From: Flavobacteriaceae bacterium
GTDB lineage: Bacteria > Bacteroidota > Bacteroidia > Flavobacteriales > Flavobacteriaceae
Direction of reading: 5' to 3'
Assembly (NCBI GenBank): GCA_965224465.1
Contig: OZ245049.1
Location: 510,001-542,000 of the forward strand
Length of the DNA stretch: 32,000 nucleotides
The translations under genes were made by a program, and so were the position numbers. This document shows, one piece after another, positions 1,549 through 28,668 of this stretch (its first letter is position 1; every line of letters begins with the position of its first letter). Under the pieces are notes generated by a model that saw only the letters and a list, made by a program, of their open reading frames with translations, had not been told where the DNA came from and did not search any database.

Positions 1549-3861
1549 TTAAAATTTATAGCCCAAACTAAGCTTGTAATTTCTTCCTTTCCCAGGGAAA
1601 AATTGATTCCCATATATCGCATCCGCAAAATATAATTTATCTGTAATATTATCAACATTTAAAGAGAGTCTAACACTTTTAAATTGATGATACACCGTTG
1701 CATCTACTGTTGCATACGAAGGCAACAAATAAGTATTGGAAGAATTGGTGTAATTTTCACTTACATAATTAAATCCAAGACCCAGTCCTAAACCTTTTGC
1801 CAAGCCTTCTTGTTTCTCGTAATTTAACCATGCATTTGCCAAATGTTCTGGCGCAAATCTAAGTTTGTTCCCAACTTTTATAGCCTGTAATGTAGGACTG
1901 TCAAATTCGCGTACTTTAGCGTCTACATACGCATAGCCACCTTTGAAATACAATCCATTTAGGATTTGAAATTCTACATCTAACTCTACACCTTTAGAAT
2001 CTGCTTCTCCAATTTGATGGTATTCTTTAACTTTGTTTCTTTCTACGATGTTATTTTTCTGTAAATAAAATACAGAGAAGGTAACATTGTAAAGTTGTTC
2101 TTTTTCTAATTTCACACCTGCCTCTAATTGATAGCCTTTTTCTGGATCAAATACATGTCCGTCTGGAGTAATTCTACGTGTAGGTTTGAAATAATTTGAG
2201 TACGAACCAAAAACACTTAAATTATCATAAGCTTCATACACCACGCCAGCACGGTAGGTTAATGCCGTAGTTGGGATATCAGTTTTCTTACCGTATTCCA
2301 ATACATTTCTATCAGCATCTAATTTGTTCTTATAATACGTACCAGAAAATATATCGTATCGCAATCCAATCAAAACCTTGATTTTTTTAGAAAGGTTCAT
2401 CCAATCTTGAACGTAGAAACCATTCACTAATTCCTCTCTTGCGCTTACTTTTGAATCAACAGCCTCTATATGACCTTGATTTAATATTGGGTTTGTAACA
2501 TCAATAGTTGAAAACGTACCAGGGCCTTTTACAGATCCTCCATAGGTTTTACGATCCAAAATACTTAAAGAATGTCCAAATACAGAAGTGTGTTTTACTG
2601 TACCTGTAGCAAAATTATAAGAAAGATCTAATTGATTTTGAAATGTTCCTGTCTTGTGATTGAAATAAAACGGAAATGCTCTTTTAATGGTTTTATAATC
2701 TTTACTAAGTTCTAAAAACTCGGTAGACATATAATCAATATCATCATCTGACCAAGAAACATGTTCTGTTAATTTTAATCGATCACTAAATGTATGGACA
2801 TATCTCAATTGAAAATCTGTACGCTTGTGTTTTAAATAATCCTGAGGATCATTATAGCGGGTTTTTATGTCCATTCCAGGAGCCACCGTACTATTTTCTA
2901 ACATAGGAATCCCCGTGTCTGTATCATAAATATCGTTGTTCGCTTGAAACGAAAACTGAAAATAATCCTTGTCTGTCAAGTCGTAATCCAATGATAAAGA
3001 ACCATTATTGGTTTTTTCACCAAAATCTCTCCATCCATCGGTTCTTGTAGTTCCAAAATCTACACGGTATCTTAACTTATCCGAAATAGGACCTCCGATC
3101 CCTCCAGACATATTTACCGTATTATAAGAACCATACGTAGTTTTAAAAGATGCTTTTTGCACATAAGTAGGTTTCTTTTTCACCAAATTAATCACGCCTC
3201 CTAAAGCAGAATGCCCAAGCAATACACTTGCAGGACCTTTTAAAACTTCAATTCTTTCTATATTAGCAAGATTTGTTGAAGGAGCACTTGACGATAAATT
3301 ATGACGTTCATCTCGCACACCATCTACTAACAATACAAAATTATTAAACCCTCTAATTCTAAAGGTTTGAAAACCTCCATAACGGTTAATTGGTCTTACT
3401 CCTGTAACACTTTTAAAAGCATCGCCTAAACTAGATACATTTCTTTGGGTTAGCAATCTCGCATCTAAACTATTGGTAGTAATAGGCGATTCTAAATTTC
3501 GCATCACCACTTTATCAATAGAAATAATCCTACGTTGATTCCCATGCACTTGTACCGCAGATAATAAATTTGATTTTGGACTCAAGTAGATGTTCTTTAG
3601 TCCTTTTAATTTCGAAAACCGTAGGGTTTTAGTCACATATCCAATACTCGATATTTTAATGCGTTGTTTCCCGTAGGCTGTCAATTCAAAGACTCCGTTC
3701 TCATCCGCATTTGTACCGCGCTTAGTCGCTAGGTTCAAGATATTTACAAAGGGGATAATTTCTGAAGTTTTTGCGTCTACAACTTTAATAGACACCTTGT
3801 TTTGCGCTCCAACATACCCGTGCAACACAATTAACATTAAAAAAATAATTGATTTTTTCAT
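1549..3861 (-). CDS. TonB-dependent outer-membrane receptor, probably for corrinoid uptake given the upstream B12 riboswitch
   Basis: Start trimmed to MKKSIIFLMLIVLHGYVGAQ (signal peptide; ATG at 3861). It has a CarboxypepD_reg-like N-terminal domain (VSIKVVDAKTSEIIPFVNI), a plug region (IERIEVLKGPASVLLGHSALGGVINLV) and a long beta-barrel ending in a terminal aromatic (GYKF). Confidence 0.85.
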   Translation of the reverse strand: MKKSIIFLMLIVLHGYVGAQNKVSIKVVDAKTSEIIPFVNILNLATKRGTNADENGVFELTAYGKQRIKISSIGYVTKTLRFSKLKGLKNIYLSPKSNLLSAVQVHGNQRRIISIDKVVMRNLESPITTNSLDARLLTQRNVSSLGDAFKSVTGVRPINRYGGFQTFRIRGFNNFVLLVDGVRDERHNLSSSAPSTNLANIERIEVLKGPASVLLGHSALGGVINLVKKKPTYVQKASFKTTYGSYNTVNMSGGIGGPISDKLRYRVDFGTTRTDGWRDFGEKTNNGSLSLDYDLTDKDYFQFSFQANNDIYDTDTGIPMLENSTVAPGMDIKTRYNDPQDYLKHKRTDFQLRYVHTFSDRLKLTEHVSWSDDDIDYMSTEFLELSKDYKTIKRAFPFYFNHKTGTFQNQLDLSYNFATGTVKHTSVFGHSLSILDRKTYGGSVKGPGTFSTIDVTNPILNQGHIEAVDSKVSAREELVNGFYVQDWMNLSKKIKVLIGLRYDIFSGTYYKNKLDADRNVLEYGKKTDIPTTALTYRAGVVYEAYDNLSVFGSYSNYFKPTRRITPDGHVFDPEKGYQLEAGVKLEKEQLYNVTFSVFYLQKNNIVERNKVKEYHQIGEADSKGVELDVEFQILNGLYFKGGYAYVDAKVREFDSPTLQAIKVGNKLRFAPEHLANAWLNYEKQEGLAKGLGLGLGFNYVSENYTNSSNTYLLPSYATVDATVYHQFKSVRLSLNVDNITDKLYFADAIYGNQFFPGKGRNYKLSLGYKF

Positions 3862-3978
3862 TGTACTCTTACTCGTTTTTTTTGGGGAAAAATAAAAGAG
3901 CAAGACAACTTTACACAAACAAAAGATGCTGTACACTCAAACTTTTAATCCCGAAAGTTTTATAAAAAATGTTTGCTT

Positions 3979-4120
3979 ATAGGCAGGTCTTCTGACTTAC
4001 TCTACTTTTAACGTCTTCCCATCTTTTACGACAGTGACAAAGGTGTTAAAAGCTTTTTTTTAGAGCTTACAGCTGCGGGTACAGTTTCCGAATTACACGA
4101 AATTCCCATTTTAATCCTAT
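3979..4120 (-). promoter_or_regulatory. Cobalamin (B12) riboswitch aptamer
   Basis: Read on the minus strand: P1 ATAGG...CCTAT, AATGGGAA, GTGTAATTCGGAAACTGTACCCGCAGCTGTAAG, GTCACTG, GGGAAGAC, and the B12 box AGTCAGAAGACCTGCC (plus-strand 3982-3997). It lies about 120 nt upstream of the receptor start. Confidence 0.85.
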
Positions 4121-4272
4121 TCTTAAATACTAAAAATAGAAACCAATAGCAGGGCAAATGTATATGAATAAATCATATTGAACTAAGAAAATATTAACTT
4201 TTTAATAGCATGACAATCAATGCTATAGCTATGTAAAATGATAAAAATCAGGAAACAAAAAATAGATAAAGA

Positions 4273-8363: not shown

Positions 8364-8543
8364 AAAGAAATTTACACCAAGACCATCAAAATTAACAGTA
8401 AAAAAATCGTTGAACCGCTTAAAATTTAAAAAATTTGAATACTTTTAACGATAAAACAACACATACCCCGAAAGTATTATAGACATAACGGAAATAACGT
8501 CAAGTTTTGGAAGTTTATTGATGATATGTGGGGGTTGTAAAAC
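8364..8543 (+). repeat. Recombinase-3'-end/junction repeat, copy A (leftmost edge of the cassette array)
   Basis: It encodes a relic ...KEIYTKTIKINSKKIVEPLKI* that is homologous to the last codons of the 13973-15109 recombinase, including the catalytic Tyr codon at 8373-8375. About 100 nt homologous to 15070-15170 follow, ending in GTTGTAAAAC (8534-8543). Confidence 0.8.
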
Positions 8544-8573
8544 ATTTGAAAAGAATCAAATACCATAAAAAAA

Positions 8574-9749
8574 ATGGCTTATATTCAAATTAAAGGTTAC
8601 CCTAATACAAAAATAAAAATTAAACTTCCTAAAGTTATCAAGAAGGCTGAAATATTAGAAGCTTATTGGTCAGATGAAAAAGGAATTAAAATCAATGTTT
8701 TAGACTATAACAAGAAAGCCTATATAAGGATAAAAAGTAAAAATATATTTAAAAAAATTATAACATTACGTGTATATGAAAGCGATATCGGACCTATGAA
8801 TGATGATTTCATATGGGAAGATGAATTATCTCTTAAAAATAATGATGCAATTTTATCCTTTAATTTAACTCCAAATATGTTTGTTAAAGGAGAAGAGGAT
8901 CTGGTAAACTTCTATTTTACTTTACAAATAGAAGATCAAGATGAAAAAGAATTTAATAATAATAAAAAAGAGTATTTAAAGGTTCATTTAGTACGCTATG
9001 TTCCTGGAGTATTAAAAGCTTTAGGGTGGAATAAAGGGGCAGAACTACAAGAAGAATGGTTTAGTAGACAAGCAAGTAGCAACCCTGACTCTAACAATCC
9101 TAATTTATCTATCATAACGATGAATTGGATATTAGGATTTACAAGTGCTAAAACATTGCTTAGCTCTATGATTACTCAGAAAATTTGGGTAAATACAGCA
9201 GGAAAAAGAGCCTTGCTATCAGAAATTAAACGCATGATTAAAGATAATGAAGTGACCATCCCGATTAATGAAGGTAGTTCTTCTAGTTTTGGGGTATTTA
9301 ACAATACTATAATTAATTACAAAAATAAAAGGATTCCAAAATTTGATAAATACCACTATCAAGAACGTGCATTTGCTCCTGGATCTTTTAGCACATTGGA
9401 TGATCTCACTGCTGCCTTGGCTAATTTCGTTTTCAGAATGTCTTCTGGAGGAACGATAACCAAAAACAAAGACAATTATACTATTCAAATAATTAAAGTT
9501 GCCACTTATGTAAGAGACTCCTTTGACTTTATTGATCCAGGATGGGCTAGTCAAAATTTAGGCTACTGGAACATACAGGAAAATAAAGTAGTTAAATTTT
9601 CTTTGGGTTCTGGATATAGATTAATTGAAAATTCTAGTTATCAAAATTACAGGAGTGAATTTCAGATGGGAGGAGATTTTCGTTTATATAGCGATATTCA
9701 CTATACAAATACTAATGATACTTTTGACGTACCTTTAACTACTTTCTAA
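8574..9749 (+). CDS. Polymorphic-toxin-like protein, variant 1 (C-terminal domain of unknown function)
   Basis: 391 aa. The first 22 aa, MAYIQIKGYPNTKIKIKLPKVI, are shared with the 15197 ORF (MAWIEIKGYPETRMKIEFPKVV), after which the two proteins diverge completely. A small membrane-protein gene follows 3 nt later. Confidence 0.5.
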   Translation: MAYIQIKGYPNTKIKIKLPKVIKKAEILEAYWSDEKGIKINVLDYNKKAYIRIKSKNIFKKIITLRVYESDIGPMNDDFIWEDELSLKNNDAILSFNLTPNMFVKGEEDLVNFYFTLQIEDQDEKEFNNNKKEYLKVHLVRYVPGVLKALGWNKGAELQEEWFSRQASSNPDSNNPNLSIITMNWILGFTSAKTLLSSMITQKIWVNTAGKRALLSEIKRMIKDNEVTIPINEGSSSSFGVFNNTIINYKNKRIPKFDKYHYQERAFAPGSFSTLDDLTAALANFVFRMSSGGTITKNKDNYTIQIIKVATYVRDSFDFIDPGWASQNLGYWNIQENKVVKFSLGSGYRLIENSSYQNYRSEFQMGGDFRLYSDIHYTNTNDTFDVPLTTF

Positions 9750-9752
9750 AAA

Positions 9753-10106
9753 ATGAAAAAAATGATATATATATTATTCTCGATATTAGTTATTTCTTTA
9801 ACAGCATACTTATTCTTTTTTAGAAAGGAAAGTAAAACATATACGAGTCCAGATGGTTATTATTCATTAATTATAAAAAAGAAGTCTAACCTTTTTAAAA
9901 CGACCTCTCCTGGTGATGGTGGAAATTATGAAGTTGAAATAGTGTTAAAAAACAAAAGAGGTAATATTATTGGAGAAAGTAATAGTAATCTAAACTGTAG
10001 AGTATTCAATGACAGCATAGAGATTGAATGGGATATTAAAAATGATCAAGTTAAGTATAGTAGAGGAAAGACCATTAATCTTAAAACGGGTAAAGTAGAA
10101 TGTTGA
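9753..10106 (+). CDS. Small N-terminally anchored or secreted protein, candidate cognate immunity protein
   Basis: 117 aa with an N-terminal hydrophobic helix, MKKMIYILFSILVISLTAYLFFF. It is tightly linked downstream of the toxin-like ORF. Confidence 0.45.
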   Translation: MKKMIYILFSILVISLTAYLFFFRKESKTYTSPDGYYSLIIKKKSNLFKTTSPGDGGNYEVEIVLKNKRGNIIGESNSNLNCRVFNDSIEIEWDIKNDQVKYSRGKTINLKTGKVEC

Positions 10107-10121
10107 TGAAAATTATTTTTC

Positions 10122-10345
10122 AATTGAATAGACGGCTCCAACTAAAATAGCTATCAGTCACCTTTCGCACTACCATAGATACGAAAACTTCGCTCGGTAA
10201 TTTCTAATTATAAGTATAAAAACACTTCTAATTCTCATGAACCTATACGACGGTTCAAAAAATTGAAGTTTGTGTATTATTAATGGTTTGTATCCTTTTC
10301 GTACAAGTCTAGATTTGGGTTTGGTAGTTTTTAAAATTGAATTTT
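10122..10345 (-). pseudogene. Relic of the 3' end of a related group IIC intron (domains V/VI plus the last ~25 RT codons)
   Basis: attgaatagacgg... matches atcgagtagacgg... at the intact introns. atacgacggttcaaaaaattgaag matches their domain V/RT-stop region. The tracked ORF 10170-10370 carries SRLVRKGYKPLI, the RT C-terminus. It is truncated upstream. Confidence 0.7.
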
Positions 10346-10354
10346 TTCTTATTA

Positions 10355-10555
10355 AGCCATGCTTCTCCAAAAACCACAGAGATATACACCAAGACCATCA
10401 AAATTAACAGTAAAAAAATCGTTGGACCGCTTGAAAATTTAAAAAATTTGAATACTTTTAACGATAAAAACAAATAATCACTCATTCTACTCTAGCTATG
10501 TTAGAAATAACAGCTACTCTAAGAGTTCTATAGTAGATATACGGGTGTTAGGCAC
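10355..10555 (+). repeat. Recombinase-3'-end/junction repeat, copy B (recombinase pseudogene fragment plus junction)
   Basis: The in-frame relic HASPKTTEIYTKTIKINSKKIVGPLENLKNLNTFNDKNK* (10358-10477) is homologous to the recombinase C-terminus. The unit ends atatacgggtGTTAGGCAC (10547-10555). Confidence 0.8.
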
Positions 10556-10568
10556 AATAACCAAATTT

Positions 10569-11237
10569 ATGATAAAAATCACATGTACTGAAGCACCAAT
10601 ATTTGCTCAAATTGTTAATAGAAATTTCGTGAATATTACCAGAGTTTCAAGATTATTAGATGATTTTACTAAAAGTTTAAATCAAGATATTTTGAGACTT
10701 TGCGTTGTATATTTACATGCCTCATCAGAAGATTTGTTAAGAAATGTTTATTTTTATCACATCACTAATTCCGACCATTCAAATTTATTAGGTAAGATTC
10801 CTCTATTTGAATCAGACGGAAAAAAAGAAAAGTTTAATTTTCAAGATCTTAAATACTTTAAAAATTACACGATTGAAGAAATAATGAATAAATCTTGTGA
10901 AGAATATGCAAATCGACTAACGTTTAATAATACAAATGATATCATTTCTGTTTTCAACAAATTTAATGTAAGTACTGAAAAAATAAAACATTTACTACCT
11001 CAAGTTCAAGAAATTTTTTTGAGAAGACATTTAATTGTACATAACTTAGATATGAATACTAATCGTTTTCATTTAAGTAAAGAAGAATCAATAAGACACG
11101 ATGGGAAAATTGAAACAAAAGATAACTTAAACAAAGCAATTATTGAGAATTGGATAAATATAATGAGTCAATTTATGCTAAAAACTGCAATTAGTTTTTT
11201 ACCTAAAGGCACATCAATTACGATGAATAATATTTAA
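10569..11237 (+). CDS. HEPN-like (RiboL-PSP/Abi-type) protein, tentative
   Basis: The tracked ORF starts at a GTG inside the junction motif; the first ATG is at 10569. The only recognisable motif is an Rx4H-type box, FLRRHLIVHN, in the C-terminal third. It is otherwise unassignable by eye. Confidence 0.35.
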   Translation: MIKITCTEAPIFAQIVNRNFVNITRVSRLLDDFTKSLNQDILRLCVVYLHASSEDLLRNVYFYHITNSDHSNLLGKIPLFESDGKKEKFNFQDLKYFKNYTIEEIMNKSCEEYANRLTFNNTNDIISVFNKFNVSTEKIKHLLPQVQEIFLRRHLIVHNLDMNTNRFHLSKEESIRHDGKIETKDNLNKAIIENWINIMSQFMLKTAISFLPKGTSITMNNI

Positions 11238-11341
11238 TAAACATAGTACAGTTCAAACAAAGCATAAAAAGAATAAGGCTTAAGTTTCAATTAAAAAATT
11301 TATTTGATGATTAAAAGAAATATAATAGTATTAGATTCTTA

Positions 11342-12460
11342 AATTCAAGTAGTAAATGCAACTTCTTAGATTTGAGAGTTTCTAAGGTTTATTTTTCAAA
11401 ACAGAAAGAGAGTCACCTCTCCTTCATGTTTTGATGGAATAGTTACCTTACGCCCTCAAGTCTCTGAAAAAGAAGTAGTATGGCACATTTAACCAAAGAA
11501 CAAAGATACACAATTACCTGTATGTTATCACAGGGGTATTCTAAGTCCAAAATAGCCTTGGCTATAGGGAAACATAAAAGCACTATAAGTAGAGAATGCA
11601 AACGTAATTGCGATGCTCGTAGCGGCTCCTATGAATACGAATTAGCACATAGAAAGTGGAAGGATAGACATAAGAAAAAGCGAAAGCACATTAGGTTTAC
11701 TGAGAAGATAAGAAGCGAGGTTGAAAAGCTGTTACGTGATGATTATAGTCCAGAACAAGTGGTTGGAATACTTACTAAGCAAGGAAAAGAAGTTGTTTCA
11801 GTAGAACGTATTTATCAGCATATCTGGCAAGATAAGAAGCATAAAGGCACACTCTATACTCATTTAAGAAGACAAGGAAGGAAGTACAGGAAACGAGGGG
11901 CATTCAAGGACTCACGTGGTATTATTAAAGATCGAATTAGTATTGAAAAACGACCAGATATAGTGGAGAAAAGAGAACGTTTTGGAGATTTAGAAGTGGA
12001 TTTAATAATTGGAAAAAATCATCATCAAGCCATTCTTACAATCAATGACAGGGCTTCTGGGATGCTAAAGATGAAAAAAATAGCATCTAAAGAATCTTCT
12101 GTTGTAACAGCTGCTATTAATGAGCTTTTAGAAGATTGGATACCGTATATAAACACTATAACAGCTGATAACGGAAAAGAGTTTGCAGGACATAAAAAAG
12201 TAGCTGAATTTTTAGGAATCGATTATTATTTTGCACATCCTTACCATTCATGGGAAAGAGGATCTAATGAAAATTTAAATGGGCTTATTCGGCAATATTT
12301 CCCTAAAGGAAGTGACTTTTCGATATTAACTAAGCAGATGATAAAACAGGTGGAAGGAAAATTAAATAGAAGGCCTAGGAAAAGGTTTTCATATCAAAAC
12401 CCTATATTTGTAATGAATCAATTATTGTTTAACCAAAAAGTTGCGTTTATAAGTTGAATT
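11342..12460 (+). mobile_element. IS30-family insertion sequence (~1.12 kb)
   Basis: Imperfect terminal inverted repeats: AATTCAAgTagTAAAtGCAACTTcTT at 11342-11367, and the reverse complement of 12435-12460 (AATTCAAcTtaTAAAcGCAACTTtTT). The transposase stop lies inside the right repeat. No clear target duplication was seen. Confidence 0.6.
11480..12457 (+). CDS. IS30-family transposase
   Basis: 325 aa. It has an N-terminal HTH (LTKEQRYTITCMLSQGYSKSKIA...STISRECKRN) and a DDE core (GDLEVDLI, ITADNGKEF, WERGSNENLNGLIRQYFPKG). Confidence 0.9.
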   Translation: MAHLTKEQRYTITCMLSQGYSKSKIALAIGKHKSTISRECKRNCDARSGSYEYELAHRKWKDRHKKKRKHIRFTEKIRSEVEKLLRDDYSPEQVVGILTKQGKEVVSVERIYQHIWQDKKHKGTLYTHLRRQGRKYRKRGAFKDSRGIIKDRISIEKRPDIVEKRERFGDLEVDLIIGKNHHQAILTINDRASGMLKMKKIASKESSVVTAAINELLEDWIPYINTITADNGKEFAGHKKVAEFLGIDYYFAHPYHSWERGSNENLNGLIRQYFPKGSDFSILTKQMIKQVEGKLNRRPRKRFSYQNPIFVMNQLLFNQKVAFIS

Positions 12461-12570
12461 CAGCATTAAATATAAGAAATCATTCATAATTAGTAAATTA
12501 TTTAAATCGTTACGGTAAAATAAACTAACAAAAAACCATAACAGATTTATAACTATAATGAAAATTAAAA

Positions 12571-12851
12571 GTGCCTAATAACTAAGTGTTCGTGCGGTGC
12601 ATAGCGCCCAGCATGAACATAATGTTGACTATACCGGCCCAAAAGATGATACTATGGGGATTGCGCGAAGTTTATTAAGAAGCTATCGACAAGGACCTTA
12701 ATAAGATACTACCTGTTTTAGTGCATTTACTCCCACGCTCTTTTGTGGGGATAGTTTTTTACTGTTTTTTGATACTGATTATTGTTGGTTAGTAGCGTTT
12801 AGGCATGCGTTTTCCATTACGTGGCTACGTTTGTTTATTTTCGGTTATTAG
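12571..12851 (+). other. Atypical long attC-like site / non-coding spacer closing the HEPN-IS30 cassette
   Basis: It starts GTGCCTAAtAAC, the near reverse complement of the cassette start GTTAGGCAC. It ends ggCTACGTTTgtttattttcgGTTATTAG (12844-12851). That end resembles the ...CTACGTTT...ccGTT right ends of two of the three long sites, and it is the exact complement of CTAATAAC at 12575-12582. No ORF is present. Confidence 0.4.
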
Positions 12852-12936
12852 TACATGCTTTTATTGGTTGCAACCAATAGGCAGGAGGTCCTCTTCCGCT
12901 AAACAGATAGACGGTTTTGAGTTTTACTGTCTTACA

Positions 12937-13012
12937 ATCGTTCTGTTTTTCAACAATGCTAGTACGTAAACCAACCTGTTTATATCGGTCATTTCAGATA
13001 GTAGTTGGTATT
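12937..13012 (+). repeat. 76-nt direct repeat, copy 1
   Basis: atcgttctgtttttcaacaatgctagtacgtaaaccaacctgtttatatcgg...ttggtat. It is about 85% identical to 13690-13765. Confidence 0.8.
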
Positions 13013-13463
13013 ATATTCGCACTCTGATTATTATTATTTCCTGATCTGTAAATTCCATCCAAGCAAAATCATATAAATAACGATAGGTTTTACCTTGGGA
13101 ATTTATATATGAATGGGTACTGTATTTAAAATTGAATTTTTTCTTATCTAAGCGTAAACGAGTTATTTTTTTTTGGCTTAGATTCTTCCCCATCACTTCC
13201 AACAATATAGATCGATTCCTATGTAAAATACGATCAATATCTGTACACATGTCTTTGGTAACACGCCGCAGATTTGTATGGTAATAATTCTTACATTTGA
13301 TGGAACAAAATATTTTATTAGTCCTACCTACAATTTCTGTTGAACAAATTTTACAGGTTTTCATAGCTTCATAATTATTTAAATTTAAAAAAAACGATCT
13401 CGTTGCCATTTTATAAGGAGTGTTTCTAAACCCACCAATGGGTTTAATCCCCGATGCTTGCAT
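13011..13463 (-). CDS. Zinc-ribbon protein of unknown function (part of the recombinase module)
   Basis: It has a CxxC...CxxxC ribbon, MKTCKICSTEIVGRTNKIFCSIKCKNYYH. The likely true start is Met34 (13364) or Met19. Confidence 0.55.
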   Translation of the reverse strand: MQASGIKPIGGFRNTPYKMATRSFFLNLNNYEAMKTCKICSTEIVGRTNKIFCSIKCKNYYHTNLRRVTKDMCTDIDRILHRNRSILLEVMGKNLSQKKITRLRLDKKKFNFKYSTHSYINSQGKTYRYLYDFAWMEFTDQEIIIIRVRI

Positions 13464-13689
13464 CGAAATGATTAAGGTTTTTTTTCATGCCTCATGGGTT
13501 TACCCCAAGGTTATTGACTTATTTCTAGTGATTAATTACAATTAAATACTCCTAAATTATCTTGAAAACAACAAAACAGTTCTATAACACTAATTAAATC
13601 TCCTTTGACGGTTTAGAAATGGAATTATTTTTTATTTGTTCTCCGACTGAGCGGATAGCTAGACAAAAAACGAATGGATATCCTTAGCT

Positions 13690-13765
13690 ATCGTTCTGTT
13701 TTTTTAACAAGGCAAGAACGTAAACCAACCTGTTTATATCGATTATTTTGGATTTTAATTGGTAT
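13690..13765 (+). repeat. 76-nt direct repeat, copy 2
   Basis: atcgttctgtttttttaacaaggcaagaacgtaaaccaacctgtttatatcga...ttggtat. The sequence after it weakly resembles the 3' end of the zinc-ribbon ORF. Confidence 0.8.
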
Positions 13766-13972
13766 AACACCTAGCTCTTAAAATTATGTGGATCCGTGAA
13801 ACCCCAGTAATTTTATTGTCTTGAACAAAAAAGATATTTGTTTTAACTTCTTGTATTCATGAAAGTTACGACTTTAAACGTTTTTAACGGTTAAAACGTT
13901 TAACTATTTTTTTCCTAGCGATAATTTGCTCAAATAGCGTATCTTATAGCAATAAAGAAACAATGCCTACTT

Positions 13973-15109
13973 ATGAAAAGGACAGAAATTTACATACCCG
14001 TAAAAAATGCGAAACGTATAAAAGTAAGTATTCCGTATCATAGGACAGTCCTAAGACAAAAAATTAAAGAGATAAACAGTTCCTTTTGGCATCCCAATCA
14101 AAAATTATGGTCGGTTATAAATACCGAAGAAAATTTTGAACTGTTAAAATCCATTTGTGGAAAAGACACGTTGCTTAGCGCGGAAAAGTCCCCCACTCCA
14201 CTACCCGAAGTAATTTTAAATCAGAGACAGATAGAAGCGCTATTAAACTTAGAAAAAACACTGGTGTTAAAACGCTATGGTTTATCGACCATACGCATGT
14301 ATAAAAGAATGTTTAGTTTATTTTTAATGAAATTTTCCAGTAGAGATTTGGTACAAATCACTAAACAAGAAATAGAGTCCTTTATATATGAGTTGATTAA
14401 AAAAAACGGTATTTCGGAGAGCATGCAAAACCAAATTATTAATGCCATTAAAGCCTATTATGAACATGTTTTAAAAAAACCAAGAGAATTTTACGATATA
14501 GAACGTCCCAAAAAAACGATAAACATACCAAATGTGTTAAGTGAAGAGGAAGTAGTAGCATTACTTAACAGTCCTAAAAACCTGAAACATAAGGCTATAT
14601 TATGGACAATATATAGTGCTGGCCTACGAATAAGCGAAGTATTAAATTTAAGAATTGCAGATATAAATTCGGACGACGGCTATCTTTTTATAAAAAACAG
14701 CAAAGGAAATAGAGACCGAAAAACAATCTTATCTCCTCGTTTACTCCCTTTATTAAGAAGTTATTATAAAAAATACCGTCCCTCCTATTGGTTATTTGAA
14801 GGACAAACTGGCGGAAAATATACCCAAAGTAGTATTCGTAGTTTTTTTAGACGTGCCGTAGAAGAATCCAACATAAACCCCTGGGCAACAGTACACACCT
14901 TAAGGCATTCATTTGCTACACATTGCATCATAAACCAAGTAAGTATGCGTCATGTACAGAATATGCTAGGCCATGCCTCTCCTAAAACAACCGAGATTTA
15001 CACCAAAACAATTGAAATAAATAACAAAAAAATTAAAGGACCGCTTGAAAACTTAAAAAATTTGAATACATTTAACAAAAAAACAACACACAACCCGAAA
15101 CTATTATAG
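13973..15109 (+). CDS. Tyrosine site-specific recombinase (XerC/D-like catalytic spacing with an ~80-aa N-terminal extension)
   Basis: Catalytic signature: AGLRISE (Arg), HTLRHSFATH (His-x-x-Arg), LGHASPKTTEIYT (His...Tyr). It has a SAM-like core-binding region, ESMQNQIINAIKAYYEHVL. Only about 88 aa separate box I Arg from box II His, so the extra IntI-specific insertion appears to be absent. Confidence 0.9.
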   Translation: MKRTEIYIPVKNAKRIKVSIPYHRTVLRQKIKEINSSFWHPNQKLWSVINTEENFELLKSICGKDTLLSAEKSPTPLPEVILNQRQIEALLNLEKTLVLKRYGLSTIRMYKRMFSLFLMKFSSRDLVQITKQEIESFIYELIKKNGISESMQNQIINAIKAYYEHVLKKPREFYDIERPKKTINIPNVLSEEEVVALLNSPKNLKHKAILWTIYSAGLRISEVLNLRIADINSDDGYLFIKNSKGNRDRKTILSPRLLPLLRSYYKKYRPSYWLFEGQTGGKYTQSSIRSFFRRAVEESNINPWATVHTLRHSFATHCIINQVSMRHVQNMLGHASPKTTEIYTKTIEINNKKIKGPLENLKNLNTFNKKTTHNPKLL

Positions 15110-15170
15110 AGATAACGGAAATAACGTCAAGTTTTGGAAGTTTATTGATGATATACGGGTGTTACAAAAC
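14984..15170 (+). repeat. Recombinase-3'-end/junction repeat, copy C (the functional copy)
   Basis: It covers the last ~40 codons of the recombinase plus 60 nt, ending atatacgggtGTTACAAAAC (15161-15170). It is homologous to 8364-8543 and 10355-10555. Confidence 0.85.
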
Positions 15171-15196
15171 ATTAAAACCAATTAAAACCCTAAAAA

Positions 15197-16384
15197 ATGG
15201 CTTGGATTGAAATAAAAGGTTATCCTGAAACAAGAATGAAAATTGAATTTCCTAAAGTAGTAGCTATTGATGCAATAGAATGTATTACAGATTTAGAAGA
15301 TGGTTCTGACAATCTAGGCACAAATAGTACACAGAAAGGAATGATTTACGGGAAAGAATATGAATTCAAAGTTTCTAAGTATTATAAAAATAATACACCT
15401 ACTGATGAAATGATTAAAGAGATTATTTGGGAATACTCTTATGCAAATGATGAAGGGGGTGTAACAATAACAACTCAAAAAGAATCTTCTGGAGAAAGTT
15501 TTAAATTGAAAATTGATAACCTTGAAATATTAGGTAAAAAAATATCAATTTATGCTTATTTAGGATGTAAGCAAAGTGAAGGCAATTTAGATATCTTTTG
15601 CCATAATCGGTTTAGATATTTTGACAAGGAGATAATAAAAAATGAACTAAATAAGAGGAAAAATAATCCTGAATTAGCAAATCAAAGTATGACTCCTACT
15701 TGCGGAATGGCTTCAATATTTTATATATTAGCTAAAGAAGATTTTGATAACTATCAAAACTTTATACTTGATTTACATCAAACTGGGATTGCTAAATGTA
15801 ATTCATATGAAGTTGATGTTTCTAAATGTGAGCATTTATTAGAAATGGATCCTGTTATAGATAATTTATACCCCGTGTTATATGGTAAAAAAATGCCATA
15901 TATTGATTGGATTCCTTTTTCTTGCGTTAGAGACTTAGAAAATAATTTACCCATAAGTTATAATGGCAAAATGAGCCAATCTTCATTAGATGAATTTTCA
16001 GGAGCTACATTGCCTCACGAAATAGAAAAATTAATGAAAGAGGTTTTAGGTTTCAATAAAATTATAAACGACACAAATCTCGTTTTCAATAAAGATAGCC
16101 AAGCTTTTGGCGAAATATCCGCCAGAGAATTAAAGAAATTACAAGATTTATATTTAGATGGATATAATATATGCTTATTTATTAATACAAATATGATAAG
16201 TAATAAGAAATCTGGAATTTTATCGACAATTGAACATTGGGTCGTATTCGAGGGAATTATTGGAGGAACAATTAGTTGGGATGAATATGATTTCAAAGTC
16301 TTTACTTGGGGTCGTATCGAGAAAATCATTATAAACCCAGAGTCATTCAGATCAAATTATTATGGATATGTTGCAGGTAAATAA
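15197..16384 (+). CDS. Polymorphic-toxin-like protein, variant 2, with a papain/C39-like Cys-His peptidase (or amidase) fold
   Basis: 395 aa. It shares the N-terminal 22 aa with the 8574 ORF. The candidate catalytic set is NQSMTPTCGMASIFYIL (Gln, five intervening residues, then Cys-Gly) and TIEHWVVFEG (His). A lipoprotein gene follows. Confidence 0.5.
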   Translation: MAWIEIKGYPETRMKIEFPKVVAIDAIECITDLEDGSDNLGTNSTQKGMIYGKEYEFKVSKYYKNNTPTDEMIKEIIWEYSYANDEGGVTITTQKESSGESFKLKIDNLEILGKKISIYAYLGCKQSEGNLDIFCHNRFRYFDKEIIKNELNKRKNNPELANQSMTPTCGMASIFYILAKEDFDNYQNFILDLHQTGIAKCNSYEVDVSKCEHLLEMDPVIDNLYPVLYGKKMPYIDWIPFSCVRDLENNLPISYNGKMSQSSLDEFSGATLPHEIEKLMKEVLGFNKIINDTNLVFNKDSQAFGEISARELKKLQDLYLDGYNICLFINTNMISNKKSGILSTIEHWVVFEGIIGGTISWDEYDFKVFTWGRIEKIIINPESFRSNYYGYVAGK

Positions 16385-16781
16385 AAAACTTATTTATTTC
16401 TTTTTAATCATACTACTTTCGAGTTGTAAAGAGAAAGTTAAACAATGTAGTTTGGAAAATTCTATATTTAGTAGAATTACTTTAAAAGAGTTTAAAAACT
16501 TAAGAAGTCTAAGCGTAAATGGAAAAAAAAGAAATAATCTTTTAAAGGTAAATTCTAATGGAGTCTATATAAAAATAGATTCTGAAATATACGATGAATT
16601 AAGAAAAGATAAGGTTTTGTTTGTAATTAATGATTCTTTGAACTATATCATTTCAGAAATTAGAATAGATTCTGTAGAAAGGCAAACTATGGTAAATAGA
16701 ATTAATGATTGTTTTTTGGTATCATATAAAGTTAATGACTCAATAATTTATCATCATCAAGAGATTATTATAAATCACTAA
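16362..16781 (+). CDS. Small lipoprotein, candidate periplasm-facing immunity protein
   Basis: It has a signal peptide with a lipobox, KKLIYFFLIILLSSC. It overlaps the toxin-like ORF by 23 nt (or 17 nt from Met3). Its stop lies 3 nt before the cassette-end motif. Confidence 0.5.
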   Translation: MDMLQVNKKLIYFFLIILLSSCKEKVKQCSLENSIFSRITLKEFKNLRSLSVNGKKRNNLLKVNSNGVYIKIDSEIYDELRKDKVLFVINDSLNYIISEIRIDSVERQTMVNRINDCFLVSYKVNDSIIYHHQEIIINH

Positions 16782-16792
16782 AACGTTTTGTA

Positions 16793-18648
16793 ATCGAGTA
16801 GACGGGTGACAACTGAATAGTTGCCACTGCGCCTCTCACACCACCGTACGTACGGGTCTCGTATACGGCGGTTCAAAAAATTGAAGTCTGCGTATTATTA
16901 ATGTAATCTATCAAAGGTTTATACCCTTTTCGTACAAGTCTAGATTTGGTAATGGTAGTCTTTAAAATTGGACTTTGGGCTACTGCCCATCCTCCCATTC
17001 TGGTTCTACTCCAAGCGTATGCTTGTCCATTCTCTATTCCTAATCTGATTAGGTTTTTACGTTTTCGTTCGAGTTTTTTCCAATCGTGCCAAATACAATA
17101 TCGCAACCGATTTCTTATCCACTCATCTAGCTTTTTAACTTTTGCATAGATGTTGGTTAAACGGTAATTATTCATCCAGCCTCGGCAGACTTGATTAAGC
17201 CGTTCTAAACGTTCCGACAATGACATTGGTTTGGTTTTCTTGGTAATACTCTTTAGGTTACGCTTAAACTTTGCCCAACTTTTCTTTGCTACTACTAGTA
17301 TATATTGTCCTTTTACTCCCTTTTTGTAGACTGGCACAAAGCCATGTCCTAGTAACTCAAAGTTTACGGGTCTACGAATGCCACTTTTGGCTTTATTTAT
17401 AGGTAGTTTTAATTTGTCTTTTAAGAAGACAAACAACGTATTCCCTATTTGTTTCGCCTCACGTTTGGTCTTTGCGTAAATGCTAAAATCATCTGCGTAG
17501 CGGACGTACCGTAAACCCATTCTTTTCATTTCTTTATCCAAGACGTCTAACATTATGTTAGATAGTAAGGGACTAATTGGGCTTCCTTGCGGGATTCCTT
17601 TTCTACGCTTTTGAAGTTTCCCATTTATTAAAATAGGAACTCTAAGCCATTTTCGGATTAAACGCATGGTTGTTGGACATTTTACCCTGTGGTAAATAAG
17701 TTGTAGTAGGATACAATGGTCCACTTCATCAAAGAACCCTTTAAGGTCAATATCTACAATATCTTGGTAACCATTATTGATATACTGTTGAGCTTGTAGT
17801 ACTGCTTTTTGAATGTTCTTTTGTGGTCTAAACCCAAAACTAAGTGGCTCAAAATCAAATTCGAACTGAACCATTAATTGTTGGCTTACCGCTTGCTGTA
17901 GCCATCTATCTACTACTGTTGGGATTCCTAAAAGTCTGGTTTTACCCTTGCCTTTTGGAATGCTTACTCCTAAGATTGAGTTTGGAACATAGCTATTCTT
18001 ACGGATCGTTGTTAGTATGTCTGAACGGTTTTCAACTATATAAGTTGAAAGTTCCGTTACTTTCATACCATCAACTCCGCTAGCTCCTTTATTTCGCTTC
18101 ACTTGACGTGCTGCTTTAAAAAGGTTGGTAGCTTCTAGTACTTTGTCAATCATAGGTTAAATAATTCGGGTACTCCTGTTGGTTTAAAACTAGGCTAGCT
18201 AGGCATCCTAATTGAATTTCAACGTAATTTAATGTTCTGTCCTTCCCTATTTGTGAGACCATCTGAGGTCTTTCCTCAACTCGTTTCCCATAGGTACTAT
18301 GACGTCTGCTGACTTCTCCATAGAACCAACTCCTGGCTTTGGAGACCTCCCCAGGTAATGACATCTTCTTTCACTCAATCACTGCCGTATCTACATAACT
18401 ACCCTTTTAGTATTCTTTTGGGCGTTGCAATGATGTGTTTACTTACCCAAGTAATTATACCTCTGTATACGGTTTCTGTTCGTCAGTACCGAGCTTTGTA
18501 GTCTCGCTTCCTTCAGATAAAACCTCACGGTTTTCACCCTTGCGACTTACTAATGTTTCAGAACGTTACTCCTGCACATAAGGGACTTGCACCCTCTAGA
18601 TTAATTAACTACCTTTCCGTAGTTAAAAGATGCCCATGCTGGGCACAC
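16793..18648 (-). mobile_element. Group II intron, bacterial class C (IIC), copy 1; intact, 1856 nt
   Basis: Read on the minus strand: 5' GTGTGCCCAGCATGGG, AGGGTGCAAGTCCC, CTGAAGGAAGCGAGAC, CCTGGGGAGGTCTCC, GAAGTCAGCAGACGTCATAGTACC. Domain V is GAACCGCCGTATACGAGACCCGTACGTACGGTGGTGTG, followed by a short domain VI ending ...CTACTCGAT. As I recall it, this closely parallels the Oceanobacillus iheyensis IIC ribozyme. The ends are uncertain by about 2 nt. Confidence 0.9.
16873..18153 (-). CDS. Group II intron reverse transcriptase/maturase (no endonuclease domain)
   Basis: 426 aa. RT blocks: GVDGM, RLLGIPTVVDRWLQQA, FGFRPQKN, DIDLKGFFD, GIPQGSPISPLLSN, YVRYADDFSIY. It has an X/maturase tail. The stop abuts domain V. 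Confidence 0.95.
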   Translation of the reverse strand: MIDKVLEATNLFKAARQVKRNKGASGVDGMKVTELSTYIVENRSDILTTIRKNSYVPNSILGVSIPKGKGKTRLLGIPTVVDRWLQQAVSQQLMVQFEFDFEPLSFGFRPQKNIQKAVLQAQQYINNGYQDIVDIDLKGFFDEVDHCILLQLIYHRVKCPTTMRLIRKWLRVPILINGKLQKRRKGIPQGSPISPLLSNIMLDVLDKEMKRMGLRYVRYADDFSIYAKTKREAKQIGNTLFVFLKDKLKLPINKAKSGIRRPVNFELLGHGFVPVYKKGVKGQYILVVAKKSWAKFKRNLKSITKKTKPMSLSERLERLNQVCRGWMNNYRLTNIYAKVKKLDEWIRNRLRYCIWHDWKKLERKRKNLIRLGIENGQAYAWSRTRMGGWAVAQSPILKTTITKSRLVRKGYKPLIDYINNTQTSIF

Positions 18649-18840
18649 ACAAAGTATATAAAACATAGCTAATAAGTGCTTAACCCAAAGGTCAGTGCTT
18701 ATTTACTAAGTTCCGCCAAATTTTTAATTTGGCTTTTAAAATAGAAAAGATAAAAACAAAATATAAAAATCTGGCTCTGTGCTAAACCCGAAATTTATCG
18801 TATTTTCATACGCTACGTTTCATATACAAACCGTTAGGTG
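18649..18840 (+). other. Long attC-like site (right part; the left 9 nt are at 16784-16792, split off by intron 1)
   Basis: The reconstituted left end is GTTTTGTA|AC-AAAGTATA. It has three GTGCTWA boxes, the first two 19 nt apart. The central hairpin is GCCAAATTTTTA (18715) paired with TAAAAATCTGGC (18775). The right end is TATACaaaccGTTAGGTG (18833-18840). Confidence 0.65.
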
Positions 18841-18866
18841 CAAGCTGAAAAAAAAATCCCACCGCA

Positions 18867-18917
18867 CGTTCAAGCACATTTTATTTTGCTCGTGCCTCAC
18901 AAAATAAAAAGAGCTTG
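18867..18917. repeat. Hairpin element with conserved loop CTCGTGCCTCA, copy 1 (5' leader of the 4-gene cassette)
   Basis: caagcacattttattttg - ctcgtgcctca - caaaataaaaagagcttg, with 16 of 18 stem positions paired. A second copy with compensatory stem changes is at 23758-23813. Confidence 0.6.
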
Positions 18918-19026
18918 CCCTTTCCCACCACCACCACTCAAACGAAAACAAGAATAAAACTCACAACTTTTTGAGATAAAATGAAAAAATAACTTACTTT
19001 AGTGGCTGAATAAATTACATCTAAAA

Positions 19027-19221
19027 ATGAATCGGATAAAAGAAGTTTTGGAAGAAAAAGGCATTAAACAAATTTGGCTTGCTGAGAAATTGGGGAAAAG
19101 CTATAATATGGTAAATGCTTATGTACAAAACAGACAACAACCAAGATTAGAAATTTTATTCAAGATTGCGGAAATACTGGATATTTCTGTAAAAGATTTA
19201 ATTATTGAAGCTAAAAAATAA
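19027..19221 (+). CDS. XRE-family helix-turn-helix regulator
   Basis: 64 aa. The HTH is IKQIWLAEKLGKSYNMVNAYVQNRQQP. It has a paralogue at 31196 that also heads a cassette. Confidence 0.85.
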   Translation: MNRIKEVLEEKGIKQIWLAEKLGKSYNMVNAYVQNRQQPRLEILFKIAEILDISVKDLIIEAKK

Positions 19222-19222
19222 A

Positions 19223-21190
19223 ATGACAATATTACATCCATTAGATGATTTCATATATACTCTTTTTCCAAACATTGAAAAGAGCCAAGATAGTCTTGAA
19301 ACTGCACTAACAGAATTCTATTCAGTTGGAAATGTTAAACCTATCATTGAATTCAATAAAGAATTTGTCAAAATAACTATTGACTTTCTTAAAATTGAAA
19401 CCGAAAACAAACAATTTTCAAAATTGATTTCACTATGTGAATCAGCAAATTTCGAAGAAGCCAAAATTTTAGCTGACAAATTAATTGAATTAAATCCTAA
19501 TAATTCAGAATATCACAGAATTCACGGACAAATATATTCGGAATTAGGCAATCAAGGAGAAGCAATAAATTCATTAATATATTCTTTAAGATGGAATCCT
19601 AAAAATGAATGGGCTTTACTAATGATGGGTAATATTTTCGCGAAATATCAAAACGATATTAATACCGCAATGAAATACTACGACCAAGTATTGATTGTAA
19701 AACCAAACGATTGCATTACTTTAAATAATATTGGTGCAAATTTAATGCAACTCAATAATAAAAAAGAGGCAATAATTTATTTTAATAGAGCGTTAAAATC
19801 AGACAGTAATTATCCTAACACATATTACGGGCTTGCGTTAGTTGCAAATGGTGATGAAGATTATAAAAAAGCTTTTGAATTATCACTTGTTGCATTATCA
19901 AAAACAAATAAAAAATCAAACCAACAACTTTATTCAAATTCCTTTCATTTAGCTTTAGAATCAGCAAATAAACTAAAGGAAGTTGTAAATGCAGATAAAA
20001 TAATCAAAGATTTTACTGCAAAACTCGCCTATTTATCAGAAAAAGAAATAAAAATTGAGATTGACGATACTATACTAACATCAGCAAAAATTGAATTTGC
20101 AGAAAATTATGATAGAGAATATCATTTAGTAAAGTACAAATCAAATCATATTGGTGTTGAACATTTAATACTTCATGAATTAACACATTTAGAACTAGTG
20201 TTAGAAGCTAGAAAAGAGGATTTAAACGAGCTTTTTATAAGTAATGAATCAAACAAAACCAATTTTATATACTCGCTAGAAAAAGACACTTTAAAACTTA
20301 AAAAAAATGGAGTTTCAGAAGAAAATATTACCAATTATTTTTCTGCCCTTTTCAATGGTTTAAACAGTCAAACTTTTAATACACCAATTGATTTATTTAT
20401 TGAAGATAGAATTTTTAGCAATTGGGAAGAATTAAAACCAATTCAATTTCTTTCTTTATTGTCAATATTACAGGAAGGTATTCAGGCAAATACAAATAAA
20501 GAAATTGTAAAAAATACTCCAAAAACGGTTCTTTCGAAATCAAAAATTTACAACCTAATCAATGCTTTACATTTCAAAAAACTATTTGAATTAGATTTAA
20601 TAGACCAATTTAACGCAACAAAACTTGAACTAAATCAAGCAACTGAACTTTATGCTGAATTTGAAGAATATAGAGTTGATAAAGCACCTGCAGAGGAATA
20701 CGAATTAGTAAAACATTGGGGTGAAGATTTAAAATTGGATGATTTTTACGAATTAGTACCTGAATCTGATTACCGAAAAAAAACTATAGATTCGGTACTT
20801 GAAGAAATTCAAAATGACCCATTAGGTCTGAATACTTCAAATTCATCACACGACCGTAAAATGAAAAAATTCCTAGAAGAAAATTCTTCTGAGGAAATAA
20901 ACATGGCAGTTGCCATGTTTATGGGTGATGCACTAAAACATTTTAAAGCAATTCCATTAGCAGAAACTAAAAAAATTGCTTTTGAAATTGCTACAATTGG
21001 AACTCAAGGAATAGACCCAAACCAAAAAAACTATTCAATACCTTCAATAAAAAACAGTAGTTTTTCTGGCTATAAAACTTTAGCATATTATTATGTTAGT
21101 TGGGCATTAGCTATTCCAGAAATGTTAAAACAATTGCAATTGCCTTTCGATAAAGAATATAAACTAGCTACTAAATTTTTAAAACTCTAA
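19223..21190 (+). CDS. TPR-repeat protein with an HExxH (zinc-metallopeptidase-like) motif
   Basis: The start is probably the ATG at 19223, 1 nt after the XRE stop; the tracked start at 19205 overlaps the XRE gene. At least three TPR units span residues ~80-230 (NPNNSEYHRIHGQIYSELGNQGEAI..., KPNDCITLNNIGANL..., DSNYPNTYYGLALV). The motif VEHLILHELTHLELV lies at about residue 320. Confidence 0.6.
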   Translation: MTILHPLDDFIYTLFPNIEKSQDSLETALTEFYSVGNVKPIIEFNKEFVKITIDFLKIETENKQFSKLISLCESANFEEAKILADKLIELNPNNSEYHRIHGQIYSELGNQGEAINSLIYSLRWNPKNEWALLMMGNIFAKYQNDINTAMKYYDQVLIVKPNDCITLNNIGANLMQLNNKKEAIIYFNRALKSDSNYPNTYYGLALVANGDEDYKKAFELSLVALSKTNKKSNQQLYSNSFHLALESANKLKEVVNADKIIKDFTAKLAYLSEKEIKIEIDDTILTSAKIEFAENYDREYHLVKYKSNHIGVEHLILHELTHLELVLEARKEDLNELFISNESNKTNFIYSLEKDTLKLKKNGVSEENITNYFSALFNGLNSQTFNTPIDLFIEDRIFSNWEELKPIQFLSLLSILQEGIQANTNKEIVKNTPKTVLSKSKIYNLINALHFKKLFELDLIDQFNATKLELNQATELYAEFEEYRVDKAPAEEYELVKHWGEDLKLDDFYELVPESDYRKKTIDSVLEEIQNDPLGLNTSNSSHDRKMKKFLEENSSEEINMAVAMFMGDALKHFKAIPLAETKKIAFEIATIGTQGIDPNQKNYSIPSIKNSSFSGYKTLAYYYVSWALAIPEMLKQLQLPFDKEYKLATKFLKL

Positions 21191-21194
21191 AATT

Positions 21195-23749: not shown

Positions 23750-23757
23750 AAAGCCAA

Positions 23758-23813
23758 CGTAAGTTCAAGCACATTTAAAGTTTGCTCGTGCCTCACAAAT
23801 TTAAAAGAGCTTT
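23758..23813. repeat. Hairpin element with conserved loop CTCGTGCCTCA, copy 2 (3' trailer of the 4-gene cassette)
   Basis: caagcacatttaaagtttg - ctcgtgcctca - caaatttaaaagagcttt. It has the same loop as copy 1, and the stem sequence changes on both arms. Confidence 0.6.
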
Positions 23814-23860
23814 CACGCCAACGCTAGTAAGTTTGCGGAAAGAAAAAAGCCAGACACCTA

Positions 23861-25956: not shown

Positions 25957-26000
25957 AAGCAAAACAGAGATCCAATAAAATATAAAACAAAGAATTCTAA

Positions 26001-26531: not shown

Positions 26532-26543
26532 AGCCAGTTGCCA

Positions 26544-28635: not shown

Positions 28636-28668
28636 AAGTGAAAAAATCCCCACATTAAATAAATTGAA

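Follow-up and report, generated by a model that had tools for sequence, protein, structure and literature searches.

Triplicated recombinase gene end in a Flavobacteriaceae genome: probable remnants of older platforms in an integron-like cassette array

We studied a stretch of 32,000 nucleotides (nt) from a Flavobacteriaceae bacterium (GenBank assembly GCA_965224465.1, contig OZ245049.1, forward-strand positions 510,001 to 542,000), called the window in the following, in which the 3' end of a tyrosine recombinase gene and the DNA behind it occur three times (units A, B and C). Coordinates refer to the window unless a related locus is named. The only full gene is the one that ends in unit C (13973-15109, + strand). 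It encodes an XerD/IntI-like recombinase of 378 amino acids (aa) that matches PF00589 with 122.5 bits and PF13495 with 46 bits and contains HTLRHSF and EIYT, i.e., it belongs to the tyrosine recombinase superfamily. When it is aligned with VchIntIA (2A3V), chain residues 207-245 are without counterpart, i.e., the IntI-specific domain of about 35-40 aa is missing. The respective family is very large, with thousands of members that are about 368 aa long and mostly from Flavobacteriaceae, where the closest relatives are found as well. Upstream of the recombinase and divergently oriented lies the gene of a small Cys4 protein (CxxC...CxxxC; 13011-13364, - strand). A homologue of this partner gene is found just upstream of the recombinase in 37 related loci, and no Pfam or NCBIfam family matched its product.

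The three units were recovered by alignment of the stretch as well as by a repeat search (families D6 and D7), far beyond chance, and have refined limits of 8367-8536 (A), 10358-10549 (B) and 14969-15163 (C). Each consists of the final 39-46 recombinase codons followed by about 55-70 nt that close in TATAC-N4-GTT. Alignment of the units confirmed what a reading of the letters without database searches (the sequence-only reading) had noticed, namely that all three carry the last recombinase codons including that of the catalytic Tyr (E-I-Y-T-K-T-I is kept in A, B and C) and that only the third is attached to a full gene. Other parts of that reading have to be corrected. The A/T-rich imperfect palindrome it assigned to the junction is part of the recombinase reading frame (codons PLENLKNLNT) and lies outside the downstream junction; the respective 29-nt pattern CCGCTTGAAAATTTAAAAAATTTGAATAC occurs at 10427 with no and at 15041 with one mismatch (0.00 expected by chance), and in copy A with a 1-nt deletion. 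The motif reported for all three units, i.e., the core GATATACGGGTGTT, is present without change only in B and C; in A it has decayed to GATATGTGGGGGTT (3 positions differ). Pattern scans of the whole window found no further units.

Unit A begins with the last ~115 nt of the recombinase gene in a version we call alpha (8367-8482, + strand). Its frame is broken by the 1-nt deletion, and it is joined directly to the upstream region of the cob operon, the border that had already been recognised. An attI-like site of type 1, the type of unit C, follows at 8483-8536 (+ strand, GTT at 8534-8536). Unit B comprises the last 39 codons plus stop, likewise in the alpha version and with the frame intact (10358-10477, + strand; translation HASPKTTEIYTKTIKINSKKIVGPLENLKNLNTFNDKNK followed by the stop), and an attI-like site of type 2, as in the related locus L001 (10478-10549, + strand, GTT at 10547-10549); with L001's recombinase end plus site, unit B is 79.7% identical. 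In unit C, the equivalent of these coding fragments is the end of the intact gene (14969-15109), after which attI-like site C follows (15110-15163, + strand, GTT at 15161-15163). The units are mosaics: within the recombinase part, A and B are 93% identical and either is 79-80% identical to C, whereas for the tail plus site it is A and C that agree (91%, versus 59-64% to B). The similarity of A and C extends through the first 22 codons of the genes downstream and then stops. The junction proper is the GTT core 52-72 nt 3' of the recombinase stop.

To see these sites in context, we collected 80 related loci around recombinase homologues (labels such as L001, L010 or L081 denote these loci). Right after the recombinase stop, the relatives have an inverted repeat that ends in TATA[CT]-N3-6-GTT, beyond which the genes of different loci are unrelated. 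The pattern is located 19-115 nt after the stop in 29/34 related loci, compared to 5.5% of random 160-nt windows. Thus, there is a primary site comparable to attI, located 3' and not 5' of the recombinase gene. The attI-like sites A, B and C fold no better than their shuffles (z between -0.2 and -1.3), which is consistent with attI acting as a duplex. The contigs L019, L020, L021, L026, L028, L030, L032, L033 and L039 stop 16-123 nt after the recombinase stop codon, which points to assembly breaks where these arrays begin, as is typical for variable or repeated DNA.

The co-oriented cassettes downstream are separated by sites of a second kind. We found 31 complete inter-cassette sites in 16 related loci, mostly 128-134 nt long (strict pattern), which have the form N7-AAC-ANN-GTATA...TATAC-N5-CGTT-N7; none of them includes a recombinase fragment. 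The first 7 nt of a cassette (after GTT) are the reverse complement of its last 7 nt (before AAC). Among 48 candidate pairs of cassette start and end, 13 are complementary at 7/7 and 5 at 6/7 positions, and the mean of 3.73 compares to 2.07 for shuffled pairs (maximum 2.56). The site hairpin is paired to 97.9%, versus 82.8% for shuffled and 20-44% for slid versions, and it covaries, with 55 compensated cells versus 17.9. Bottom strands fold as one long hairpin (z about -3.2) and are the slightly more stable strand. That is, the sites are attC-like, being imperfect inverted repeats with AAC/GTT cores that fold into hairpins. Sites of the same form also adjoin recombinases of 39-41% identity in Algoriphagus and Paludibacter. 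In the locus of a Paludibacter metagenome-assembled genome (L048), the cassette starts at 11244, 17320 and 19998 have the same 21 nt after the core (GTTATATGCCAGTTTAAAAAT), which may be a repeated cassette leader.

The array of the window obeys these rules, with cassette starts that match the respective ends at 5-7 of 7 positions. Judged by its sites, the window holds an integron-like gene-capture array that follows the cassette logic of integrons. All cassettes are on the + strand. Cassette A (8537-10122, GTT/GTAAAAC to ATTTTTC-A, 5 of 7 complementary) follows unit A and encodes a 391-aa DUF6402 protein (8574-9749) and a small protein of 117 aa (9753-10106). The slot behind unit B (10550-12578, GTT/AGGCACA to AGTGCCT-AA) holds an open reading frame (ORF) of 230 aa (10545-11237) and an IS30-type transposase gene (11480-12457, HTH_38 plus rve). 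Behind unit C, cassette 1 (15164-16792, GTT start at 15161, GTT/ACAAAAC to GTTTTGT-A) encodes a 395-aa protein and a small 139-aa protein. Cassette 2 (18836-23860, GTT start at 18833, GTT/AGGTGCA to GACACCT-A) contains genes for a helix-turn-helix (HTH), a TPR and a MazG-like protein and for a fusion of GIY-YIG, Schlafen-type helicase and S24 peptidase parts; together, these genes (19027-23749) look like a phage-defence module. It is followed by cassette 3 with a CYTH-domain protein (25951-26543, GTT start at 25948, GTT/GGCAACA to AGTTGCC-A) and cassette 4 with a 765-aa ORF (28630-30967, GTT start at 28627, GTT/ATGGGCA to GCCCAT-AAC), from where the array runs on to the end of the window. An HTH gene similar to that of cassette 2 opens the cassette at 31196 as well as the first cassette of L008.

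With regard to cargo, the two large cassette proteins (391 aa with DUF6402, and 395 aa) have only their first 22 residues in common (8574-8639 and 15197-15262; MAxIxIKGYPxT..., 64% identical), and behind each of them a small protein is encoded whose N-terminus is hydrophobic. These may be putative exchangeable toxin/immunity pairs with a common leader. Searches of PDB sequences with the two large proteins gave no match, profile searches detected no immunity families among the cassette proteins, and the proteins of cassette A and slot B are not on record in public assemblies.

Cassette differences at the proposed cores can be seen in a sister strain. The metagenome contig L081 encodes an identical 378-aa recombinase, and its flanks are 96.5-99.7% identical to the window (cob flank 99.66%). 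The junction between the cob region and coding fragment A is the same. In place of units A and B, L081 has a single hybrid, of which the left part shows all five markers of the A version and the right part is a site of B type (96.5% identical to site B). After the GTT of this hybrid follows an unrelated cassette with a 359-aa ORF (GTT/GTGTTTA to TAAGCAC-AA); cassette A is absent. Beyond slot B, the identity between window and L081 resumes with 99.2% over 2587 nt and lasts until unit C's GTT. From there on, the window continues with cassette 1 and L081 with a CYTH cassette that is 100% identical to cassette 3 of the window. The cassettes thus differ exactly at the cores of the intact unit C and of unit B, which is detached from any full recombinase gene. 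This supports the earlier view of the units as recombination junctions with new material downstream in so far as cassettes turn over at the GTT of B and C; that each insertion duplicates the coding end did not hold up. The hybrid itself is most simply explained by a 2013-nt deletion through homologous recombination between the coding fragments of A and B.

Three of the inter-cassette sites in the window are split by group II introns, all on the - strand (RF02001 with 126 bits, 3 times; TIGR04416 with 358 bits versus a cut-off of 300). Intron 1 (16793-18648) encodes an intact reverse transcriptase (RT)/maturase of 426 aa and splits site 1 (16785-16792 plus 18649-18835). In intron 2 (23861-25765, in site 2) and intron 3 (26544-28448, in site 3) the RT frame is broken. 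Since removal of the introns restores N7-AAC-ANN-GTATA, they are inserted at TTGT/T in the bottom strand, opposite to the cassettes. In L081, the site that intron 3 occupies, i.e., that of the CYTH cassette, is intron-free. Introns 1-3 are 100% identical over 1043 nt at the 3' side; introns 2 and 3 are longer by ~46-49 nt, with the frame divided into ORFs of 283 aa and 124 aa.

A fourth intron copy bears on the history of unit B. The inter-cassette site of cassette A contains the 3' end of a group II intron, truncated at the 5' side (10123 to ~10340, - strand, delimited by alignment to the 3' end of intron 1), and unit B abuts this relic, as the sequence-only reading had seen. Between relic and coding fragment B, we found 32 nt of the Cys4 gene (10327-10357, - strand, i.e., in platform orientation), 94% identical to 13122-13153 of the window and 91% to L001 8866-8897. 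The order before unit B is therefore end of cassette A, intron relic, 32 nt of Cys4 gene, where the join of intron and Cys4 gene falls within a shared TTTAAAATTG motif. Because intron relic and Cys4 fragment precede it, unit B once was a complete platform whose genes were lost by two deletions. It is also no copy of A, since its coding part starts 24 nt deeper within the gene and the Cys4 fragment is attached to it.

Relatives contribute the state without these remnants and a further example. In L001 and L086, which have the same cob flank, the Cys4 gene and the recombinase follow the cob genes with nothing between, so that 8367-13010 of the window is extra material. L010 holds, 5 kb downstream of its intact gene, a 482-nt recombinase fragment with site and cassette, i.e., a third remnant besides A and B. 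The truncation points differ: A begins at 8367, the cut of B lies 24 nt deeper within the gene, and L010 keeps 482 nt, compared to about 115 nt in the window. That older recombinase genes had been deleted up to the present fragments was put forward earlier as an alternative, and it is this alternative that the Cys4 piece in B and the longer fragment in L010 bear out. L010 also contains a ~93-nt element that is repeated 3-4 times (11308-11400, 12529-12621, 15101-15194, 16241-16268), the last, partial copy of which abuts the truncated recombinase fragment.

Taken together, we consider it probable that A and B are fossils of older platforms stacked upstream of the working platform C, and that the triplicated recombinase end is explained this way; the wider setting would be an integron analogue of the integron/rAID kind (for rAID-1 see below). 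In this explanation, a platform consists of the divergent Cys4 gene, the XerD/IntI-like recombinase and, directly after its stop, the attI-like primary site, an imperfect inverted repeat closing in TATAC-N4-GTT. Downstream, co-oriented cassettes each close with a hairpin site of ~130 nt (or ~190 nt). The recombinase would exchange cassettes between the hairpin sites and the GTT-ended primary site, with an exchange unit that begins with the TT of a GTT and ends with the G of the following GTT. Units A and B would be the array-proximal ends of two older platforms, the recombinase and Cys4 genes of which were deleted. For unit B, one deletion would have fused the Cys4 gene, at TTTAAAATTG, with the intron that sat in the preceding cassette site, and another would have linked the Cys4 gene to recombinase codon ~340. 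The orphaned sites would still act as cassette boundaries, and the replacement at site B presumably made use of the recombinase provided in trans from C. The coding remnants of ~100 nt would be passengers that serve as direct repeats for homologous recombination, such that A x B removes cassette A. Stacking possibly came about by integration of platform-bearing DNA at a cassette site of the older array, in keeping with the position of every younger platform behind an older cassette's end. The anatomy, the site rules with the hairpin covariation, the location of the strain differences at the cores and the fossil content of B are observed; the role of the recombinase in the exchanges, the order of events and the way of stacking are inferred.

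Going one step further, the units may be the primary sites of a Bacteroidota-wide integron analogue that is based on an XerD-like recombinase without the IntI insertion and a Cys4 partner, with sites usable in trans after gene loss and platforms that can be stacked. This generalisation is tentative, and we would not yet call it probable. More speculatively, the stretch from GTT(B) to GTT(C), recombinase gene included, has a site at either end and could be mobile as one giant cassette.

Several points weigh against the stacked-platform explanation. Fossil A is joined directly to the cob upstream region, with no Cys4 remnant. A full-length gene with an alpha-type 3' end was not found by an exact-pattern scan of metagenome contigs and among the homologues P0002-P0007; the recombinase end of L086 is only alpha-like. 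The insertion with which integron integrases recognise folded attC sites is missing from the recombinase, and the protein scores below the curated integron-integrase models (TIGR02249 with 180 bits versus a cut-off of 265, NF011946 with 129 versus 435). That it catalyses the exchanges is an inference, and the cassette difference at unit B could stem from homologous recombination in the shared flanks instead of site-specific exchange. The stacking of platforms and the segment 12577-13010 are left unaccounted for. Finally, only 24 nt separate the cut points of A and B within a gene of 1137 nt (about 4% by chance), and the retained coding stretch is 88-95% identical between the window and L001, compared to 76% gene-wide, which hints that it was possibly kept for a reason.

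The last two observations are what one expects if the coding fragment is kept as DNA, i.e., if the last ~115 nt contain accessory recombinase-binding sites or the promoter of the first cassette, so that only deletions sparing them leave a usable site. All three known fossils keep at least 115 nt, and one block of 31 nt shows hardly any variation among A, B, C and L001. There is also a parallel in class 1 attI sites, which have accessory integrase-binding sites upstream of the core. The number of fossils is only three, however, the stretch also encodes the region of the catalytic Tyr, which is conserved as protein, and more distant members of the family differ in sequence there. Inspection by eye revealed no conserved match to the Bacteroidetes promoter consensus TTG-N19-TAnnTTTG. 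We regard a function of the fragment as DNA as rather unlikely, noting that it would be compatible with stacked platforms.

Less likely still is ordinary decay, according to which A and B are dead, functionless paralogous integrase genes and the strain differences result from general homologous recombination and deletion. Some of the observations agree well with it: B is demonstrably a deletion product, the L081 hybrid is best explained by homologous recombination, the core of site A is decayed, and in L086 (10930-11110) the recombinase gene is split after ...NPWATVHT by an insertion of ~170 nt, i.e., these genes also die by another route. Decay does not account for the way in which window and L081 differ at B. 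The difference starts exactly at the GTT and ends at the 7-nt complement of each cassette's start, and such 7-nt bounds are the signature of cassette-wise exchange, here at a fossil site. In addition, the B core is identical to that of C, so that we consider decay on its own improbable.

The sequence-only reading had favoured a junction that overlaps the recombinase coding end, with each incoming element bringing its own copy such that old ends pile up; three co-oriented copies next to variable DNA and the unusual conservation of the last ~150 nt of the gene at the DNA level speak for it, but it is largely refuted and very improbable, given that displaced ends are expected downstream of the intact gene and are found upstream, that the fragments of A, B and L010 start at different points, that B holds a piece of the upstream partner gene, that the 31 inter-cassette sites of relatives are free of recombinase fragments, and that strain differences begin at the GTT 52-72 nt past the stop and not within the coding end.

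Genomic islands at tRNA 3' ends offer a comparison for such an overlap. They likewise place repeated copies of a gene's 3' end beside variable DNA, but in their case the copies are displaced to the downstream side and share a single length, which the crossover dictates. In the window, the copies are upstream, of different lengths, and the crossover is outside the gene.

For the stacked-platform explanation, integrons are the closer comparison, especially the sedentary chromosomal class. Both have a tyrosine recombinase adjoining a primary site that ends in GTT, co-oriented cassette arrays, and cassette sites that are imperfect inverted repeats with AAC...GTT cores, cassette-specific outer arms and hairpin folding. 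In both, the start of a cassette is complementary to its own end, and the cargo includes defence-like and toxin-like genes. The window differs in its recombinase, which has no IntI-specific insertion and stays below the curated integrase cut-off, in the location of the primary site 3' of the recombinase gene with cassettes co-oriented with that gene, in the inner boxes GTATA/TATAC, and in the conserved Cys4 partner gene.

Copies of primary sites away from an intact integrase gene are also known from integrons. Delta-attI or internal attI sites in class 1 and class 2 integron arrays remain substrates of IntI1 (PMC12901181). As in the window, primary-site copies or remnants mark positions within the array. 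The delta-attI sites differ in that 14-244 nt of attI replace attC; those of the window contain the recombinase gene's end as well and are located upstream of the working platform, as relics of whole platforms. With regard to the introns, group IIC-attC introns are found in attC's bottom strand, with an orientation against that of cassette transcription (PMC3001079). The introns of the window share the insertion in the bottom strand of cassette sites, the orientation opposite to the cassettes and the RT/maturase ORF, a likeness by position and ORF. Their targets belong to a non-IntI system.

Within Bacteroidota, the system to compare is rAID-1, i.e., the recombinase-associated clusters of acquired interbacterial defence in Bacteroidales (Ross et al. 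2019; preprint 10.1101/471110). These are defined by a 5' XerD-like recombinase more than 44% identical to BF9343_RS08045, at least 2 co-directional downstream genes with a G+C content of at most 41%, and repetitive intergenic sequences (preprint 10.1101/471110), the latter being described as reminiscent of integrons (same preprint). How the arrays grow and arise was still called unknown in 2025 (PMC12247911). Likened by description, the window corresponds in the XerD-like tyrosine recombinase at the 5' end, in the co-oriented low-G+C genes downstream and in the repetitive intergenic sequences. Here, the cassettes have a G+C of 0.27-0.31; since the whole genome is A+T-rich, this is not discriminating. 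In contrast to rAID-1 with its Bacteroidales hosts and mostly orphan immunity genes, we are dealing with a member of the Flavobacteriaceae that carries putative toxin/immunity pairs and defence-like genes. A recombinase 3' fragment within the repeats, which the sequence-only reading had proposed to compare, is not described for rAID-1 in the literature searched. A search that started from a Proteiniphilum relative led to environmental Bacteroidales and a single Parabacteroides protein only, with none from B. fragilis; the respective Parabacteroides locus (L088) has a possible core and no canonical cassette sites. XerC/D recombinases have also been found to adjoin polyimmunity loci by Aravind and colleagues (PMC3482391).

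In Proteobacteria, integrons are the classic machinery of gene capture. From Bacteroidota, standard detection yields next to none of them, e.g., a single complete integron was reported for Bacteroidetes by IntegronFinder 2.0 (PMC9024848), and the only comparable system there is rAID-1 of gut Bacteroidales. For Flavobacteriaceae, we found no description of such an integron analogue in the literature that could be searched. The locus and its relatives yield explicit, testable site rules for these arrays, namely a primary site right after the recombinase, ~130-nt GTATA/TATAC hairpins, AAC/GTT cores and 7-nt arms, and a shuffling of cassettes is already visible in two strains that share their recombinase. 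The putative fossils would add that orphaned primary sites persist as cassette boundaries and that coding remnants, through homologous recombination, cause the loss of cassettes. If these rules are confirmed, they would permit array-wide cassette annotation (toxins, immunity genes, phage defence) in marine and gut Bacteroidota and a direct test of whether rAID-1 works alike.

Some observations concern the surroundings of the platform. The Cys4 gene is 96% identical at the DNA level between the window (13038-13365) and L001 (8782-9109), while the neighbouring cob gene and the recombinase reach only ~76%, which suggests that the Cys4 gene alone was recently exchanged. Between Cys4 gene and recombinase lies the palindrome AAACGTTTTTAACGGTTAAAACGTTT (13874-13903), a possible operator that L001 and L026 have kept as well. 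Window and L081 have a spacer of 434 nt in common (12577-13010), which directly follows slot B and precedes the Cys4 gene. It contains GTGCGGTGCATAGCGCCCAGCATG, which resembles an intron 5' end, and its last ~100 nt are repeated with 77-83% identity between Cys4 gene and recombinase (12931-13034 at 13683-13787). An identity of the spacer as an intron fragment found no support in an Rfam scan of 10000-14000, which was empty even at a relaxed threshold; no match was found in the other loci. On the far side of unit A, a cobalamin riboswitch (3965-4162, - strand, 92.5 bits) lies upstream of a 795-aa ORF (1549-3936), which adjoins the cob genes flanking the array and is the counterpart of the TonB-dependent receptor gene of L081.

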